Source: a virus
Virus genome (UHGV): UHGV-1326467
Strand: one strand, 5' to 3'
Length of the DNA stretch: 23,054 nt
Shown in pieces: positions 3,019 to 23,054 of this stretch. Every line of letters begins with the position of its first letter. The stretch's first letter is position 1. The position numbers and the translations under genes were made by a program. The notes beneath the pieces are model-generated. The model had not been told where the DNA came from and made no database searches. It saw nothing but the letters and a program-made list of their open reading frames with translations.

Positions 3019-4209
3019 TTACGGCTCCTTTGAGGTTCCACCGCTGACCAGCTTGGGTCGTTTTTCAGTGTTGCCGTCATACTCCTTCAGATAGCGTCCA
3101 TAATGCCTGAACAACATTTCAGGCCCTTTGTGTCCCATCTGCGATGCGAGCCAGAACAGGTTAGCGCCTTGACTAATATGCCTGGTCGCGAACGTATGCC
3201 TGGTCTGGTATGGATTGCGGTACCTGATCCCGGCTTTGCGTAAAGTTGGCACCCAGGCTTTCTTTCTTATCGCATCGGCACCCGCCCATGGTTTTTCTGT
3301 CTTGGGATCCTCAAAGATCGTTGCATCTTTCATAAAGGTGAAAGGCTTCTGAGAAATCAGGGCATACAAGGCTTCTTCGGTTAACTCAACTTTACGTGTT
3401 CCAGCTTTAGTTTTCGTGCCCTTAATTACTCCCACTACGCTGGCATTTTGCACATGCGCTGTTTTGCCGATAAAGTCGATATCGCGCCAACGGAGGGCGC
3501 AGAGTTCAGAACTACGTAGCCCGGTTTCAATTGCAAAGCGGAATATGTTTTCCCACTGCTTGTTACCTGCGGCATGCAAAAGCGCTTCAACCTCGGCCGG
3601 TGAAAGCGGATCAACAATATAATCACTTTCATCCTCGGTTTTACTGCTCTGGTAGCGCGAGGCTGTCACCAGTGAAACTGGGTTAATCTGTAATACACCA
3701 TCAGTCACAGCTTCATCCAGTGCTGAGCGTAGGAATGAAAGTTGGTTCCTAATCGTTTTTAATGTCGTTTTCTGACTCTGGATCCATGTTTTTAAAGCAG
3801 CAGGTGTTAATTCACTGGCAGGAAAAACGTGAAGTGATGCCAAAGCATTTAAACATTTCTTATATCCGCCGATTGTTGAAGGAGATAATTTTCTCGTTTC
3901 ACAAATTACAAGATATTCATCGAGATAATTTTTTACCGTTTTTCCTGTTGAAGCATTACCAAATATTTTAAGTCGTGCCGAACGGGGAAAGTGTTCACCA
4001 TAATTGAATGTACCCCGCTCAATTTTATTGTGAATTTCGCCGAGTGTTCGCTCGGCGTATTTTATGTTTTTGCTATTAACTTCAAGGTTTGATAAAGGTT
4101 CCCGGCATTTCACCCCCTTATAGGTAAAGGTAATATTGATAGTTTCCCCAGTACTATGTTTCCTGATCGTTACGCCGCGCGGGAGTTTAGGCGATTTTGT
4201 CGAGCCCAT
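3019..4209 (-). CDS. int: phage integrase, tyrosine recombinase
   Basis: 396 aa; C-terminal catalytic motifs ...TRHTFATRHI... and ...LFRHYGRY (R, H-x-x-R, Y), N-terminal arm-binding region; sits next to the att site and overlaps xis. Confidence 0.9.
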   Translation of the reverse strand: MGSTKSPKLPRGVTIRKHSTGETINITFTYKGVKCREPLSNLEVNSKNIKYAERTLGEIHNKIERGTFNYGEHFPRSARLKIFGNASTGKTVKNYLDEYLVICETRKLSPSTIGGYKKCLNALASLHVFPASELTPAALKTWIQSQKTTLKTIRNQLSFLRSALDEAVTDGVLQINPVSLVTASRYQSSKTEDESDYIVDPLSPAEVEALLHAAGNKQWENIFRFAIETGLRSSELCALRWRDIDFIGKTAHVQNASVVGVIKGTKTKAGTRKVELTEEALYALISQKPFTFMKDATIFEDPKTEKPWAGADAIRKKAWVPTLRKAGIRYRNPYQTRHTFATRHISQGANLFWLASQMGHKGPEMLFRHYGRYLKEYDGNTEKRPKLVSGGTSKEP

Positions 4210-12020: not shown

Positions 12021-12044
12021 ATAAAAAACCCGCGGATGCGGGTT
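12021..12044 (-). terminator. rho-independent terminator of cI
   Basis: Stem aacccgc / gcgggtt with loop atcc followed by TTTTTT on the minus strand, 8 nt after the cI stop codon. Confidence 0.7.
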
Positions 12045-12051
12045 CGGGGGC

Positions 12052-12684
12052 TTAGAGATCGATGATTATTTGCTTAACTATACCGATCAGTTTTGTATCT
12101 TGGTTCACCTCTATAGGCTTAAACGACGGGTTTAGAGGTATGAGATAGGAAAATGGAGGGTCTATGGCGAGCTTTTTAATGGTCGCTTCACCACCAGTAA
12201 CGGTTTGGGCTATCACAATTTTGCCATTTGCCTCATCAACAAAACCGTATTCTGGCTCGACAATGACAACCGAACCATCAGGAATGCTAAGCTCTTGGCT
12301 CGAAGTCATCGAGTGACCTTTAACACGTAATGCAAAAGCTGATTCAGATAGCTTCTTTGTAGTTTTAACCAGTTCGTTAGCTGGATCGCCAATAACCTCG
12401 GTCCAGTTACCTGCCTGAACCCAAGATATAACAGGCACTTCTCTAACAGATATCAGGTTAATGTTGATACCGTTCTCGATATCGCCTGTACCGAAGATAA
12501 GCCATTCGGGAGAACATCTCAGGCACTGACATACCAATACAAGATTCTCGCCTGATAACTTTGTGGAATCATTTTCCCATTGTGTAACCGCAGACGCGCT
12601 GACGCCGGCCCACTCAGCAACATCACGTTGCGTAAGTTTTTTCTGCTTACGTCTAAATCTTAATCTGCTGCCAACGGTATCCAT
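12052..12684 (-). CDS. cI: CI-like repressor (HTH plus S24 LexA-like peptidase domain)
   Basis: N-terminal HTH (KLTQRDVAEWAGVSASAVTQWE) and C-terminal S24 domain with catalytic Ser (GHSM) and a downstream Lys; GGAGG Shine-Dalgarno; divergent from cro. Confidence 0.85.
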   Translation of the reverse strand: MDTVGSRLRFRRKQKKLTQRDVAEWAGVSASAVTQWENDSTKLSGENLVLVCQCLRCSPEWLIFGTGDIENGININLISVREVPVISWVQAGNWTEVIGDPANELVKTTKKLSESAFALRVKGHSMTSSQELSIPDGSVVIVEPEYGFVDEANGKIVIAQTVTGGEATIKKLAIDPPFSYLIPLNPSFKPIEVNQDTKLIGIVKQIIIDL

Positions 12685-15451: not shown

Positions 15452-16405
15452 ATGAGTCAGGAAGTACAAGAAGCTATGACCGCAGAAGAGCAAAATTTAA
15501 CAAAAAGCGTCAGCCCTTATTGCCTGGCACTTGAGGAACAGCGCCAGCGAAGTTCGCATTATTTGAAAGAAGTCGGGGATCAATGGCGTACCCCTGATCT
15601 GCTGTTCTGGGGCGTTAACGCTTTGTTTGGCCCGCTGGTGCTGGACCTGTTTGCAGACGACAGCAATACAAAATGCCCGGCATGGTATACCGCTGAAGAT
15701 AATGCGCTGACGCAGGACTGGTCTGGTCGTCTGGTAGAACTCGGAGGAGCGGCCTTTGCTAATCCGCCGTACAGCCGCTCGCAGTACCATGAAAAACAAG
15801 CCATCACTGGCATGACTCATATTATGAACTATACCGCCGAGCAGCGTGAAAAGGGTGGTCGTTACATTTACCTCGTGAAGTCAGCAACAAGTGAAACATG
15901 GTGGCCGGAATATGCCGATCACATCATGTTTATTCGTGGTCGTATTGGATTCGATCTCCCAACGTGGTTTGTGCCGGCCGACGAAAAGCAGAAGCCCACC
16001 AGCGCCTTCTTTGCTGGCGCTATCGTGATATTTGATAAGACATGGTGTGGGGAGCGCTTTAGCTATATCGATCGTATAGAGCTTGAGGCGAAAGGGCGCG
16101 CAAGTATGGCTTTGGCTGAGTTTGCTGCGGGAAAATTCCTGTCACCAGCTTCGCCAGTTCAGTCTCCTGAAGTGATCATCCCCGATGCTGTTGCATCACT
16201 AGCTGAGGCTGAATCCCGGATCTGGCCACTGGAAGTTGGTCTCGTCTTTGAACAGTTACAAGGCGCAGAGGATCTGGAATTCTCACAGCAGAACAAGCTG
16301 AAGGCCCACATTAACCAGTTGTGGCTGGAGCGGGTGCCCACCAGCGAAATCATTACCGTTGCTGGTGGTCTTGTCGGCAGCATGAGGGGGACCGCTCATG
16401 CGTGA
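15452..16405 (+). CDS. phage Dam-family DNA N6-adenine methyltransferase with C-terminal extension
   Basis: WRTPDLLFWGVNALFGPLVLDLFADDSN...AFANPPYS: NPPY catalytic motif and the typical phage Dam N-terminus, plus about 120 extra C-terminal residues. Confidence 0.8.
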   Translation: MSQEVQEAMTAEEQNLTKSVSPYCLALEEQRQRSSHYLKEVGDQWRTPDLLFWGVNALFGPLVLDLFADDSNTKCPAWYTAEDNALTQDWSGRLVELGGAAFANPPYSRSQYHEKQAITGMTHIMNYTAEQREKGGRYIYLVKSATSETWWPEYADHIMFIRGRIGFDLPTWFVPADEKQKPTSAFFAGAIVIFDKTWCGERFSYIDRIELEAKGRASMALAEFAAGKFLSPASPVQSPEVIIPDAVASLAEAESRIWPLEVGLVFEQLQGAEDLEFSQQNKLKAHINQLWLERVPTSEIITVAGGLVGSMRGTAHA

Positions 16406-18248
16406 GCTCATCGTAGACAACTTTGCGGGCGGTGGCGGTGCATCAACTGGGATAGAAATGGCGATCGGTCGTAGCGTTGATATTGCGATAAACCATGACG
16501 AAAACGCAGTGGCCATGCACCGAACTAACCATCCTGAGACGCTTCATTATTGTGAAAACGTTTTTGATGTTGACCCCTTGGCTGCGACAGGCGGGAAAGC
16601 TGTTGGGTTTGCGTGGTTTAGTCCGGATTGCACCCACTATTCAAAGGCCCGCGGCAGCAAGCCCGTCAAACGTGAGATCCGTGGTTTGGCCTGGGTATCT
16701 GTTCGCTGGGGATTGGATGTACGTCCTCGCGTGATGGCTCTTGAAAATGTTGAAGAATTTAAAACGTGGGGCCCGCTACTCTCTTGTGAGATGCGTCCTG
16801 ATCCTGAGCGTTCGGGTGAAACCTTCCAAGCATTTGTTGGAATGCTTTCTACTGGTATACCTGAGGATCATCCGGCGCTGTTCGAATGTTGCGAATTTCT
16901 CGGGATATCGCCGGATAGCAAACAAGCCAAACGGCTGATTGCTGGCCTCGGGTATAAGGTCGAATATCGCGAGCTTCGTGCCAGTGATTATGGTGCACCG
17001 ACGATCCGCAAGCGATTCTTCATGTTGATGCGTTGCGACGATAAACCCATTGTCTGGCCTGAGGCTTCGCATGGTGATCCTAAATCGGCCTCAGTGCTGA
17101 CAGGTAAACTGGCGCCATGGCGGACAGCAGCTGAATGCATCGACTGGTCCATTCCTGCACCATCGATATTTGACCGCAAAAAGCCGCTTGCAGTTAACAC
17201 GTTGAAGCGTATAGCTCGGGGTATCCAGAGATTTGTGGTCGATAGCGATAACCCATTCATCGTGAAATGCAACCATACCACGACACGCGGTAAATATGAT
17301 TGTTTCCGTGGACAGGAGTTGTATTCGCCAATACAGACAATCACCAAAACTCATGGTTACGCGTTGGCGGTACCTACTCTGGCACCGTTTATGGCTGGAA
17401 ATGGTGGTAGCCAGTACCAAGCTAAACCGCGCCCACTCAACAAACCAGTTCATACCATCCTAAAGCAATCCCGAGCATGCGTAGTTGCCCCGGTTATCGC
17501 CCGCCAGTTCGGTGCCAGCATTGGCCATCGGGCAGATGAGCCTAGCGCCACGATTACCGCTGGGGGTGGGGGAAAGTCTCAGTTAGTCACGGCCACGCTT
17601 ATTCAGATGGGGTATGGCGAACGGGTGGGGCAATCACCGCGGGTTCTAAATCTTGGTAAACCGTTGGGTACTGTTACAGCTGGGGGCAATAAGTTTGCCG
17701 TAACAACTGCGTTCCTGGCAAAACACTATGGCGGGAACTACACCGGTCCGGGCGTTGGGCTTGATGAGCCAGCTCACTCAGTGACTACAGTCGATCATCA
17801 CGCTCTTGTGACATCGCACCTGGTAAAACTGCGCGGTACCTGCCGTGATGGTCAGCGCACCGATGAACCGATGCCGACAATCACCGCAGGAGGTCAGCAT
17901 GTGGGAGAGATTAGCGCGCTGCTGGCGGCTAATGATTACGATGAGCGCCGTGCGGATCAAGTCAAAGAGTTCCTAAATTCGTTTGGCGTCAGCGAACTGG
18001 TGACGATTAAGGGCATTGTTTACCGGATTGTTGACATCGGAATGCGAATGCTACAGCCACATGAACTTTACCGCGCTCAGGGATTCCCGGACTGGTACAT
18101 CATCGACCGGGACTACCGCGGCGTGAAGTATTCGAAGGAAAAGCAAGTTGCGCGCTGCGGAAACGCCGTGCCGCCGCCGTTTGCTGAGGCGCTGGTTAGG
18201 GCCAATCTGCCGGAAATGTGCGTTAACAAACAGGAGCGAGCAGCATGA
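16398..18248 (+). CDS. DNA cytosine-5 methyltransferase, 616 aa, with a long repeated variable region
   Basis: Motif I FAGGGGAS, motif IV-like FSPDCTHYSKA, motif VI LENVEEF, motif X CGNAVPPPF. Four repeated modules between them, each containing a [ST][IV]T[AT][GV]-type core (TITAGGGG, GTVTAGGN, HSVTTVDH, PTITAGGQ). Confidence 0.85.
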   Translation: MRELIVDNFAGGGGASTGIEMAIGRSVDIAINHDENAVAMHRTNHPETLHYCENVFDVDPLAATGGKAVGFAWFSPDCTHYSKARGSKPVKREIRGLAWVSVRWGLDVRPRVMALENVEEFKTWGPLLSCEMRPDPERSGETFQAFVGMLSTGIPEDHPALFECCEFLGISPDSKQAKRLIAGLGYKVEYRELRASDYGAPTIRKRFFMLMRCDDKPIVWPEASHGDPKSASVLTGKLAPWRTAAECIDWSIPAPSIFDRKKPLAVNTLKRIARGIQRFVVDSDNPFIVKCNHTTTRGKYDCFRGQELYSPIQTITKTHGYALAVPTLAPFMAGNGGSQYQAKPRPLNKPVHTILKQSRACVVAPVIARQFGASIGHRADEPSATITAGGGGKSQLVTATLIQMGYGERVGQSPRVLNLGKPLGTVTAGGNKFAVTTAFLAKHYGGNYTGPGVGLDEPAHSVTTVDHHALVTSHLVKLRGTCRDGQRTDEPMPTITAGGQHVGEISALLAANDYDERRADQVKEFLNSFGVSELVTIKGIVYRIVDIGMRMLQPHELYRAQGFPDWYIIDRDYRGVKYSKEKQVARCGNAVPPPFAEALVRANLPEMCVNKQERAA

Positions 18249-20577: not shown

Positions 20578-21633
20578 GTGCGAGCATTGCTTACTCCGGA
20601 AATTGTGCCGCGCCTGGGCGTTGTTCTTTTCAAACCAGGCCGCGAATTGATGTCTCTCTTTACCGGCGGCCGTGTCCTGATAGAGCGTCAGCCAGAGAAA
20701 ATGAAAACACTGCCAACTGGGCGGATCGCCGATGCACGTCAGCCGCTTGCCGAAATGGACATTCTGCGTTTTTTCATGAGGGATGAGAGGGTTATTAACG
20801 CAGCTGGTGGAATAAACGCTCTTGAGGCTTGGCTTCTACGACATGTCAGAGAGTGCCAGTACCCGCATTCCCACTATCACCACCATGAATTAGTGACTAT
20901 GCGGCATCCGCCTGGCGCCATGGTTGTCTGCTGGCATTGTGATAATGAATTACGTGAGCAGACCACCGAAATGTTGTCAGAGCTGGCTTATCAGAATCTG
21001 GTTCAGTGGGTGATTGAAAGGGTGCTGATCAGCCTTGGATACAATAAGGAGCGCGAATTATCGATGGCGGAGCTCTGCTGGTGGGCTGTGAAATCCGGCA
21101 TTGCTGACGCAATAACCGAGACGATGGCGCAACAGGCCTTAAGACTGCCTGAGGAACCTTTCCTGTCCGTTTATAAGGATAGCGATATTGTCCCGTCATT
21201 TGCTGCAGGTGAAATCCTTCAGGATCTTGTTGAGGGCATAGACCTGGCGGACGTCAGAGTACTCATTGAGCAACCTCAGATTGAAAGTAAACCCATTCTG
21301 AGGCTTAGTGTCGATCCGAACAGCCCCGAATCATTTATGCGCCGCCCAAAGCGCCGGCGCTGGACCTGCGAAGTTTACACACGTTGGGTTAAAACTCAGC
21401 CATGTGAATGCTGTAGGCAACCATCAGACGATCCACACCATATAATAGGGAATGGTCTGGGGGGAACTGGCACCAAGGCCCATGATCTCTTCGTGATACC
21501 ACTGTGCAGAGTGCATCACGATGAATTACACGCCAATACATCAGAGTTCGAAAAGAAATATGGCACTCAGTTAGAGCTGTGGGCTCGTTTTCTGGATCGG
21601 GTAATGGGTATCGGCGTCATTGTAAAAGCTTGA
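20578..21633 (+). CDS. DUF968 (YdfU-like) protein with HNH-like Cys/His motif
   Basis: C-terminal CECCRQPSDDPHHIIGNG...LCRVHHDELH cluster; typical position between rusA and Q in lambdoid prophages. Apparent GTG start, so the start is uncertain. Confidence 0.55.
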   Translation: MRALLTPEIVPRLGVVLFKPGRELMSLFTGGRVLIERQPEKMKTLPTGRIADARQPLAEMDILRFFMRDERVINAAGGINALEAWLLRHVRECQYPHSHYHHHELVTMRHPPGAMVVCWHCDNELREQTTEMLSELAYQNLVQWVIERVLISLGYNKERELSMAELCWWAVKSGIADAITETMAQQALRLPEEPFLSVYKDSDIVPSFAAGEILQDLVEGIDLADVRVLIEQPQIESKPILRLSVDPNSPESFMRRPKRRRWTCEVYTRWVKTQPCECCRQPSDDPHHIIGNGLGGTGTKAHDLFVIPLCRVHHDELHANTSEFEKKYGTQLELWARFLDRVMGIGVIVKA

Positions 21634-21651
21634 GTGTATGGAGTACTGAGC

Positions 21652-22482
21652 ATGAATATTGAATCAATTCCCAAATTTTTCGCGCCCAAAGGAATGCATA
21701 TTTCCGATAGCGGTCGTGCAACCGCCAGCGAGCAACTCACTGTGACAGATGTAATGGCCGCACTGGGGATGACACAGGCAGAGGCAGGAATAGGCCTGTC
21801 AATGTTTTTGGGTAAAGCTGGAATCAGCGAACACGACAGAAAGGCATCCGTCAGTTGGTTGGCTGAATATGCAAAATCAAAAGCGCCTCGATCGATAAGA
21901 AAAGCAGCAGGGAAGAAGTTCCCGCTGTGTATGCTGATAATAGCTCGGTTCGCTTATAACGACTATGCCTCGTCTGCAGCTGACAGCGTAGATTGCAGGA
22001 AGTGTTCTGGTTCAGGCTTCATAAAAAAAACCTCAATGGTGGAAAAAAGCCACTACAAAATGAGATTACCGCAATGGGCAAAAGACCTCGGGCAGTCACC
22101 TTCGGATTTTGAAGTAAAACGTCAGGTGGAAGAGATTGACCATGTTCTCTGCTTCAAATGCGGCGGCACCGGGAAAATCAGCAAGCGATGCCAGTGTGGC
22201 GGTACGGGAAAAACCCTGGACCGTAAAGAGTCAGATCTGCAGGGAGTGCCTGTCTACAAAGTATGTAAACGTTGTGAAGGCCGCGGTTATAGTCGTCCTA
22301 AGTCTTCAAATGCTTACAGAGGTATGCTCTCTGAGCTGCCTGGTCTGCCAGAACGTACCTGGCGATACAGCTGGAAACCTTTCTATGAAAGTCTGGTTAC
22401 AAAATGCTTTGAGGAAGAGAGTTATACCGACTCACAACTTAAACGTGTGACAAAGGTGTCTGATTTGATAAATATCGCATAA
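21652..22482 (+). CDS. Q-like late antitermination protein
   Basis: Cys-rich zinc-binding motifs (CRKCSGSG, CFKCGGTG, CQCGGTG, CKRCEGRG) and position immediately upstream of the late promoter and terminator; ATG at 21652 with GGAG upstream is preferred over the GTG at 21634. Confidence 0.6.
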   Translation: MNIESIPKFFAPKGMHISDSGRATASEQLTVTDVMAALGMTQAEAGIGLSMFLGKAGISEHDRKASVSWLAEYAKSKAPRSIRKAAGKKFPLCMLIIARFAYNDYASSAADSVDCRKCSGSGFIKKTSMVEKSHYKMRLPQWAKDLGQSPSDFEVKRQVEEIDHVLCFKCGGTGKISKRCQCGGTGKTLDRKESDLQGVPVYKVCKRCEGRGYSRPKSSNAYRGMLSELPGLPERTWRYSWKPFYESLVTKCFEEESYTDSQLKRVTKVSDLINIA

Positions 22483-22496
22483 TTTAGCGACACGTT

Positions 22497-22540
22497 ACTT
22501 GCAAAGTTGCCGCTTTTGTGTAATTTTATCTATAACGATG
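22497..22540 (+). promoter_or_regulatory. candidate late promoter pR' (Q utilisation region)
   Basis: -35 TTGCAA (22499-22504) with -10 TAATTT (22521-22526), or alternatively TTGCCG with TATAAC (22531-22536); lies 15-60 nt after the Q stop and about 50 nt before a strong terminator. Confidence 0.4.
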
Positions 22541-22565
22541 GGCTTTGTATGTTCAACGTTGATTA

Positions 22566-22590
22566 ACCCGCCAGCGAGCGGGTTTTTTTA
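22566..22590 (+). terminator. rho-independent terminator tR' of the short late leader transcript
   Basis: Stem acccgc / gcgggt (6 bp), 6-nt loop, followed by TTTTTTT. Confidence 0.7.
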
Positions 22591-22692
22591 TGGGCTAAAA
22601 TCGATAAAATCTTCTTCTCTTTCAATTAGTTCTTGCTGGATACCGTCACCAGAGTTATCTGTATGTCACACCACTTATTTGAGGTAAAAGAC

Positions 22693-22884
22693 ATGCTAAA
22701 TCAGCAAGATATGACGGAAACAGCCAAGGCTGTTTTTGATGAGTTAAGTGACAAACCGGCTACGGCTGGGGAGATTGCTCAGAATACTCACCTGAGCCGC
22801 GAACGCTGCCAGCTCATACTTACGCAGCTGGTAATGGCGGGGTTATCTGATTATCAGTTCGGATGTTATAAGCGCCTCCAGTAA
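22693..22884 (+). CDS. small winged-helix regulator, PapI/FaeA-like
   Basis: 63 aa from the ATG at 22693 (GAGGT Shine-Dalgarno); ...ATAGEIAQNTHLSRERCQLILTQLVMAGL... parallels the PapI core ([29 protein letters not shown]) from memory. Confidence 0.4.
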   Translation: MLNQQDMTETAKAVFDELSDKPATAGEIAQNTHLSRERCQLILTQLVMAGLSDYQFGCYKRLQ

Positions 22885-23054
22885 TGGGGGCTTTTGCTGT
22901 GAAAATGGGCGGCTGGTGGGTGTTGTAGCACCCGACCAGCCATCAGCTCATGCTTTCAGGTCACAAGCTAACCACGGCCCACTGCTTTAGCGCAAAAGCA
23001 AAGTGAGCCTATCAGAGTTACGCTTACTGATCTATGAAAAATACTGTAAAAATA

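Follow-up and report, generated by a model that had tools for sequence, protein, structure and literature searches.

UHGV virus genome UHGV-1326467 is a stretch of 23,054 nucleotides (nt; the whole of it is called here the window), which holds the left and central part of a lambdoid prophage and carries near its right end a gene for a Q-type antiterminator. We consider it highly probable that the cassette formed by this Q gene, together with the promoter, pause signal and terminator behind it, is a well-preserved and ordinary late-gene switch of the lambda type, residing in a Klebsiella-type lambdoid prophage. The case is built on protein and DNA homology to phage lambda, on the geometry of the elements, on the purifying selection acting on each of them and on the order of the genes downstream. 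Judged from its sequence, the cassette is an additional, unannotated case of the known lambda-Q regulatory type.

On the plus strand, the DNA after the Q stop codon (TAA, 22480-22482) reads TTTAGCGACACGTTAC-TTGCAA-AGTTGCCGCTTTTGTG-TAATTT-TATCTAT-AACGATGGG-CTTTGTATGTTCAACGTTGATT-AACCCGC-CAGCGA-GCGGGTT-TTTTT (Table 1). The original prediction had described a Q-like antiterminator gene, a sigma70-like promoter and, about 50 nt further on, a strong intrinsic terminator, and had recognized in them the pR'-tR' arrangement. Most of this is borne out: the gene encodes a true lambda-Q homologue (by Pfam, by sequence search of the PDB and by structure match), a terminator with a stem of 7 base pairs (bp) and seven T residues follows the promoter on the plus strand, the distance is a fair one (38 nt from the -10 hexamer to the stem, 56 nt from the predicted start to the end of the T run), and the arrangement as a whole is supported by the Q homology, the alignment with the lambda late promoter PR', the purifying selection and the late genes found downstream in the Klebsiella phage Kp4866-6. 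The promoter itself stands in part, being conserved and aligned with lambda PR' but, by consensus alone, reaching only 7 of 12 positions and going unlisted by the scan. The pause element, which is the most diagnostic part of the cassette, was absent from that description.

Results

The Q protein belongs to the lambda family

The Q protein matches PF03589 in Pfam (E 9.3e-45, 151 bits, with a cut-off of 26.7) and phrog_127 (E 6e-95). PF03589 is the family of Q-lambda, PF06530 that of Q21 and PF06323 that of Q82 (PMC9388147), and the Pfam search gave no match to the Q21 or Q82 families at E <= 0.01. An attribution of PF03589 to the Q of phage 82 was considered and rejected, given that both the PDB matches and PMC9388147 point to the lambda family. 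The sequence search of the PDB returned only Q-lambda chains (7ubm, 4mo1 and 7ubj, with E down to 4.8e-43), in which residues 1-122 of the window protein align to lambda 1-125 and residues 179-268 to lambda 117-207. The AlphaFold model, made from 45 homologues (pLDDT 84), likewise has Q-lambda for all of its eight best PDB matches in Foldseek, the best one being the NusA-engaged loading-complex chain 7ubn_Q (TMt 0.76, E 1e-13).

Residues 1-60, the segment that forms the nozzle in lambda, align without gaps to Q-lambda 1-60 (including G39), and positions K8, P12, K13, S18, D19, D33, A36 and G39 are conserved in the 45 homologues. In the zinc ribbon, C180/C182 and C205/C208 align with C118/C121 and C144/C147 of lambda, and the tip of the arm is retained (SDLQG, in the place of TELWG in lambda). 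The arm, at about residues 112-210, is doubled when compared with lambda, by about 56 extra residues in a zinc-knuckle module (about 112-178), where the extra knuckle pair (C115/C118 and C167/C170) is predicted by the model to accompany a long beta-hairpin (strands 123-135 and 154-166). Four cysteine knuckles (one of them CxC) are present in all, enough for two zinc sites, and all eight arm cysteines are invariant among the homologues. This subfamily ranges over Klebsiella, Salmonella, E. coli, Citrobacter, Yersinia, Serratia, Pantoea, Photorhabdus, Xenorhabdus and Morganella, and the doubled arm is also found in the Q of the SfV, Ayreon and Stx2c phages.

Pause element, promoter and spacer

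The comparison with relatives uses 80 IMG/VR loci whose Q is 74-100% identical to that of the window; counts are given over 81 or 83 loci, and column conservation over 60 distinct sequences. The 9-mer AACGATGGG, which is shared with lambda PR', occurs once in the window (0.15 occurrences are expected), and the distance from the first base of the -35 hexamer to the first base of AACGAT is 35 bp in the window and in lambda alike. In lambda, AACGAT is the sigma-dependent pause element where Q loads (PMC9388147, PMC4914094), and it is placed at +1 to +6 of PR' because lambda perfectly matches the published pause consensus T+14 N Y+16 G+17 (PMC9191641). Transcription of the window cassette would accordingly begin at about A22534, the first base of the 9-mer, which is a purine after a T, 7 bp past the -10 hexamer, and fits a predicted start. 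The element AACGAT is kept in 71 of the 81 loci, and the ten variants all retain the A at position 2 and the T at position 6. These two are the most important bases of a -10 element. Further downstream, the predicted pause-site motif TATG sits 1 nt beyond the position of its lambda counterpart, and a TNYG motif is present at this place in 71 of 81 loci.

A -35-like element near the pause element of lambda receives sigma region 4 in the loading complex and aids Q loading (PMC9388147). At the corresponding site, 43 of the 81 relatives have TTGACA or TTGACG, and the window's clade, together with a clade at 87% identity, has TTATCT or TTAATC. We treat this site as a modulating, not a defining, feature of the cassette family.

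When compared with the consensus, TTGCAA matches at 4 of 6 positions and TAATTT at 3 of 6, with a 16-bp spacer between them; the promoter is nevertheless above chance, because of its homology and its conservation. The composite TTGCAA-N16/17-TAWWTT is found once in the window, compared with 0.05 expected, and lambda reads TTGACT-N17-TAAATT-TGACTC-AACGATGGG, with the -10 hexamer and the 9-mer in register with the window. Across the 81 loci the spacer measures 16 bp in 76 and 17 bp in 5, and the -10 hexamer is TAAATT in 40, TAATTT in 17 and TATATT in 14. The conserved 16 nt upstream of the -35 hexamer could act as an UP-like element or belong to the Q site.

The Q-binding element (QBE) of lambda is located between -35 and -10 (PMC4914094), where it is read by the helix-turn-helix (HTH) of the Q body and by the arm (PMC9388147). 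Between Q clades, the spacer sequence changes in step with the start of the long C-terminal helix of Q (about residues 231-240), which in the AlphaFold model would be the second HTH helix. The helix start TQPTWSR goes with the spacer TATTGAATAAAATTGGG in lambda and with TATTGAATAGAATGGAC in Yersinia, ERTWRY with AGTTGCCG(C/T)TTTTGTG in the window's clade, ERTWRR with a spacer containing TTGTCCGC in Photorhabdus, and DYQWYK with TTTTCAAAAAATATGGA in the SfV type. The Yersinia Q (L086 2340-2400), only 47% identical to the window Q, has both lambda's TQPTWSR and lambda's TATTGAATA spacer. This tracking of the spacer with the HTH helix is correlative support for the assignment of 22505-22520 as the QBE, to which Q would bind.

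Terminator and leader RNA

The terminator begins 83 nt after the Q stop and 31 nt after A22534. Its hairpin (five G-C pairs, a 6-nt loop and a free energy of -10.6 kcal/mol) is among only two in 20 kb with an unbroken run of at least three T residues extending into a T-rich tail. A leader RNA of about 56 nt is predicted; the fold of a 59-nt leader has -18.8 kcal/mol (z = -2.56). A per-locus search detected a proximal intrinsic terminator in 80 of 83 related loci; its T run stops between +53 and +78, most often at +56, and several loci have other stems at the same place (CCTCGC/GCGGGG, CCTCACC/GGTGGGG).

A hairpin at the 5' end of the leader (AACG/CGUU with UGGGC/GUUCA), seemingly conserved in lambda too, was rejected on the grounds that only one-sided changes are seen and that one pair is broken in 21 of 62 sequences. 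A search of Rfam 15 gave no match at gathering thresholds; the best sub-threshold match was Trp_leader (22502-22591, 25.2 bits with a gathering threshold of 41, E 0.0086), and this match as well as one to isrK were rejected as driven by the terminator. Elsewhere in the window, a strong terminator stands on the minus strand directly after the cI-like gene (12026-12045; GAACCCGC...GCGGGTTT then TTTATT), with a stem closely similar to that of the tR' hairpin.

Selection on the individual elements

The motif TTGCA[AT]-N-A..AT.GG is present after Q in 80 of 80 IMG/VR loci. At 74-79% Q protein identity, fourfold-degenerate sites are 17-43% identical, which is essentially saturation, and the 81 non-coding nt after the Q stop are 72-90% identical in the same loci (a figure that leaves out L066, L074 and L082, where the stop position was mis-called and the motif is present in all three). 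Column conservation is 100% in the -35 hexamer, 95% in the spacer and 90% in the -10 hexamer, falls to 76% in the interval between -10 and pause element, reaches 97% in the pause element and 99% in the GGG, and then amounts to 88% from +10 to +27, 63% in the linker, 91-94% in the terminator arms, 70% in the terminator loop and 40% in the 12 nt past the terminator. Purifying selection acts on the promoter, the spacer, the pause element and the terminator, whereas synonymous sites and the flanking sequence are free to change.

Homology among the relatives stops within a few bases of the T run, with differing cargo beyond it (22590 onward; loci L004-L083), so that the end of the cassette is a recombination boundary with variable cargo after it. 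In several loci a second terminator stands 30-170 nt beyond the first; the beginning of the late operon is a recombination hot spot.

More distant loci, in which Q is 42-47% identical, keep the same arrangement. The Yersinia locus reads TTGTGT-TATTGAATAGAATGGAC-TAATCT-GACTCT-AACGATGGG and then has a terminator, the Photorhabdus locus (Q 42% identical) has a -10-like AATAGT, then GGGG, then a CCCGCC/GCGGG-T5 terminator, and the Pantoea and Atlantibacter loci belong to this set as well.

Genes behind the terminator

Positions 21600-23054 are 98.9% identical to Kp4866-6, which is unannotated. Past the terminator, this phage has, on one strand, a small winged-helix gene, an N6/N4 methylase, HNH, a TerB-like gene, holin, endolysin and the small and large terminase genes, with the holin 3.4 kb past the terminator and the holin, endolysin and terminase genes spanning 3.4-7 kb downstream. 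Given that these late genes lie on the same strand, the cassette was rightly taken to mark the boundary between the regulatory and the late region, with lysis and terminase genes following. It had also been remarked that the next gene is a small regulator rather than a holin, of which the second half is correct; 'regulator' is an annotation-level guess. The 63-residue product has 310 homologues in Enterobacterales prophages (named in the source 'TrmB family regulator' or 'hypothetical'), falls below the curated cut-offs of the Pfam families DprA_WH, TrmB and HTH_20, and its gene is homologous to SfV orf47. A first gene other than a holin is normal for this position, being part of a common cargo module also present in the SfV, Ayreon and Stx2c phages. 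The presumed late transcript also contains a terminator-like hairpin (22874-22891; GCCTCC...GGGGGC then TTTT), which overlaps the small gene's stop codon.

A structured leader before the methylase gene

The non-coding block between the small gene and the methylase AUG is about 93% identical to the SfV and Stx2c phages over the aligned 158-161 nt. For the methylase gene itself, identity to these phages is 70-72% (39-48% at fourfold-degenerate sites), for the small gene it is 77% to SfV (33% at fourfold-degenerate sites), and the small protein shares only 55% of its residues with its Stx2c homologue. At least 120 copies of the leader, in 68 distinct variants, turned up when viral contigs were scanned. 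They support two mutually exclusive structures, three consecutive hairpins or a long-range helix reaching the methylase AUG: for each of them, the covariation score and the count of double changes are higher than in 500 out of 500 shuffles and in all slid controls. Pair 67-93 of the leader, for instance, is C-G in 17 sequences, A-U in 13, U-G in 3 and U-A in 2. The segment AAGC[U/G]A (about 22965-22971) can pair either upstream or with the bases abutting the AUG, and both pairings are kept by compensatory changes. The leader has no match in Rfam, and no Shine-Dalgarno sequence precedes the AUG. A small open reading frame (ORF) within it, MGGWWVL, was rejected as coding, an indel in the SfV-type copies breaking the frame.

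The element looks like an undescribed cis-regulatory RNA and is possibly a translational switch for the methylase. M.EcoGII, from a related prophage methylase family, is reported to be silent in lysogens and harmful when expressed (PMC5778455); in phage Mu, the small protein Com opens a leader hairpin so that the DNA-modification gene mom is translated (PMC6483171). We offer as a tentative idea, one that we hold to be possible and not probable, that the conserved trio of 63-residue protein, leader of about 130 nt and methylase comprises an RNA switch which gates the translation of a potentially harmful late methylase, the small protein acting, speculatively, as the effector in the manner of Com on mom.

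The remainder of the window

After the cI-like gene come a cII-like activator, an O-like replication gene, two DNA methyltransferases, RusA, KilA-N, DUF968/HNH and then the Q gene. The prophage has three DNA methyltransferase genes, two of them adjacent in the early-right region (15452-16405 and 16398-18248) and the third behind the late terminator (23035 onward). No transfer RNA or transfer-messenger RNA gene is present in the window.

Table 1. Coordinates of the cassette and of the other features of the window.
Feature	Position	Strand	Remarks
Q antiterminator gene	21652-22482	+	276 residues, lambda-Q family; ATG start set by alignment to lambda Q residue 1
Conserved 16 nt, Q stop to -35	22483-22498	+	TTTAGCGACACGTTAC; mean column conservation 84%, 60 distinct relatives
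-35 hexamer, PR' equivalent	22499-22504	+	TTGCAA; invariant, 81/81 clade loci
Spacer, putative Q-binding element	22505-22520	+	AGTTGCCGCTTTTGTG, 16 bp
-10 hexamer	22521-22526	+	TAATTT; aligns with lambda TAAATT
-35-like site position (sigma region 4 in lambda)	22526-22531	+	TTATCT; 3/6, degenerate
Predicted start (A22534) and sigma-dependent pause element	22534-22542	+	AACGAT then GGG (AACGATGGG); identical to lambda PR' +1 to +9
Predicted pause-site motif (TNYG)	22548-22551	+	TATG, +15 to +18
Intrinsic terminator, tR' equivalent	22565-22589	+	stem AACCCGC/GCGGGTT (22565-22584), loop CAGCGA, T7 22583-22589
Winged-helix-like protein gene, first past terminator	22693-22884	+	63 residues; phrog_331 (function unknown), E 2.5e-32
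Conserved structured RNA leader	22904-23034	+	in non-coding block 22885-23034 before methylase AUG at 23035
Leader hairpins	22911-22941, 22943-22971, 22976-23009	+	compensatory changes
Alternative long-range helix	22959-22969 with 23021-23032 (span 22959-23032)	+	compensatory changes; reaches methylase AUG; exclusive with hairpins
N6/N4 DNA methyltransferase gene, start	23035-23054	+	cut by window end; full Kp4866-6 gene (L001 10435-11514) matches PF01555, E 2e-40
Integrase	3019-4209	minus	
cI-like repressor	12052-12684	minus	

Discussion

From these data we infer a start site, a pause position, a contact of Q with the spacer and read-through of the terminator, which would follow one another in this way. 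The sigma-70 RNA polymerase of the host would start at about A22534 from TTGCAA-16 bp-TAATTT, after which sigma region 2 would re-bind the -10-like AACGAT(GGG) at the start of the transcribed sequence and elongation would pause near the TATG (+15 to +18), at an RNA length of about 16-18 nt. In the absence of Q, the enzyme would escape, stop at the hairpin and U7 and release the leader RNA of about 56 nt. Once accumulated, Q would bind the conserved spacer between -35 and -10 and engage the paused complex, its N-terminal 60 residues (with NusA) forming a nozzle on the RNA exit channel. The polymerase so modified would ignore the terminator of the cassette as well as later ones and read first the small winged-helix gene, then the methylase and other cargo, and last the genes for lysis and the head.

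Several findings weigh against this explanation. With 7 of 12 consensus positions, the promoter is below the threshold of a generic scan; the -35-like site, which lambda uses for the repositioning of sigma region 4, is degenerate in the window; and the extra zinc module of Q may alter the geometry. Covariation in the terminator gives little independent support, because the stem is too conserved and because MAFFT misplaces the variant terminators. Additionally, the window ends at 23054, and the late genes are known from the near-identical phage only.

The leader might also serve, once terminated, as a trans-acting small RNA (sRNA) in lysogens, as StxS does, a second role which is compatible with the late-gene switch and which we judge unlikely. 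The lambda PR' promoter is constitutively active, and lysogens accumulate its terminated transcript; StxS and IsrK are precedents (PMC7547250), and the shape of the leader (a 5' hairpin, an A/U-rich linker and a U7 terminator) is that of a typical Hfq-dependent sRNA; moreover, the 88% conservation from +10 to +27 is above the known needs of pausing. The conservation from +7 to +18 is, however, already covered by the GGG and the pause-site motif, leaving RNA shape and the conservation of +19 to +27 as the positive support for an sRNA, and no Rfam family is found above threshold for it, nor does the 5' hairpin, with its frequently broken pair, have compensatory changes.

It is very improbable that the cassette is instead a 'moron', whose promoter lets the lysogen express the small gene and the methylase at a low level independently of Q, with the terminator as a leaky attenuator. 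Variable cargo that includes accessory genes (the methylase, TerB and, in relatives, stx2c) would agree with it, and some leak through a terminator is normal, but a strong U7 terminator, retained in 80 of 83 loci, stands directly between promoter and genes, the related M.EcoGII is reported to be silent in lysogens and harmful when expressed (PMC5778455), and the pause element would have no role.

Still less credible is that the hairpin merely ends an early-right operon whose last gene is Q, there being no promoter and the late genes being read from upstream. The distance from the Q stop makes this a plausible spot for such a terminator and the promoter is a weak match to consensus; an operon end would nevertheless leave unexplained the invariant TTGCAA, the conserved spacer and -10 hexamer, and a lambda-identical 9-mer at the lambda distance, all of them under selection. 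A transcription attenuator working through a leader peptide, suggested by the Trp_leader match, has a negligible chance of being right, as that match is far below the gathering threshold and terminator-driven, the neighbouring gene is Q and not a biosynthetic operon, and the leader is devoid of any start codon, so that no leader peptide can be read from it.

Reading the cassette as a lambda-type switch fixes, for the annotation of this Klebsiella-type prophage, the boundary between early and late genes, the likely late start (about 22534) and the Q-dependent terminator. In addition, a large subfamily with a doubled zinc arm in its Q keeps AACGAT(GGG) and the 35-bp distance from -35 to pause element throughout, and the -35-like site for sigma region 4 appears to be dispensable in some clades. 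The tracking between spacer and helix, with Yersinia Q equal to lambda in both, offers natural specificity swaps. Confirmation of the methylase leader would mean that many enterobacterial prophages carry a new cis-regulatory RNA.

Comparison with known systems

The closest model is phage lambda itself, with which the window shares the Q family PF03589 (homologous in the N-terminal nozzle segment as well as in the HTH body and zinc ribbon), the order of Q gene, promoter, pause element at +1 to +6 and terminator, the identical 9-mer, the 35-bp distance and a TNYG motif near +15. The two differ in the length of the leader (194 nt in lambda, about 56 nt in the window), of the spacer (17 and 16 bp) and of the interval from -10 to the pause element (6 and 7 bp), in the sequence of the spacer (that is, of the QBE), which is unrelated, in the -35-like TTGACT by the pause element, intact in lambda and degenerate in the window, and in Q, which in lambda has 207 residues and two cysteine knuckles, compared with 276 residues and four knuckles here.

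The SfV, Ayreon and Stx2c phages have a long-arm Q of the lambda family, an AACGATGGGCTTTGTATGT leader and a CCCGCC...GCGGG-T7 terminator (annotated by the depositors), as well as the small winged-helix gene, the conserved leader block and the N6/N4 methylase ahead of the holin. Unlike the window, they read TTGCAT-N17-TAAGAT-N6-AACGATGGGCTTTGTATGT, with the spacer TTTTCAAAAAATATGGA and a leader about 10 nt longer, and their Q is only 37% identical. In the Stx2c phage PV98-693 (L085 4950-8900), an SfV-type cassette is followed by a 141-residue ORF, the small winged-helix gene, the leader, the methylase and stx2cAB. The Stx2c phages carrying the cassette and then stx2cAB, a like Q, pause element and terminator would gate stx2c; a cassette of this type would thus drive the toxin gene, and leader and terminator would be relevant to toxin control.

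The systems of Q21 (PF06530) and Q82 (PF06323) follow the same logic of Q gene, PR', sigma-dependent pause at 16-25 nt, terminator and late genes (PMC4914094, PMC9388147), with protein families that are unrelated to the window Q. StxS, finally, resembles the predicted leader in being a short RNA from a constitutive late promoter, ended at tR' (PMC7547250), but originates in a PR'-tR' interval of 258 nt, is cleaved to 74 nt by RNase E and has no sequence relation to the leader of the window.

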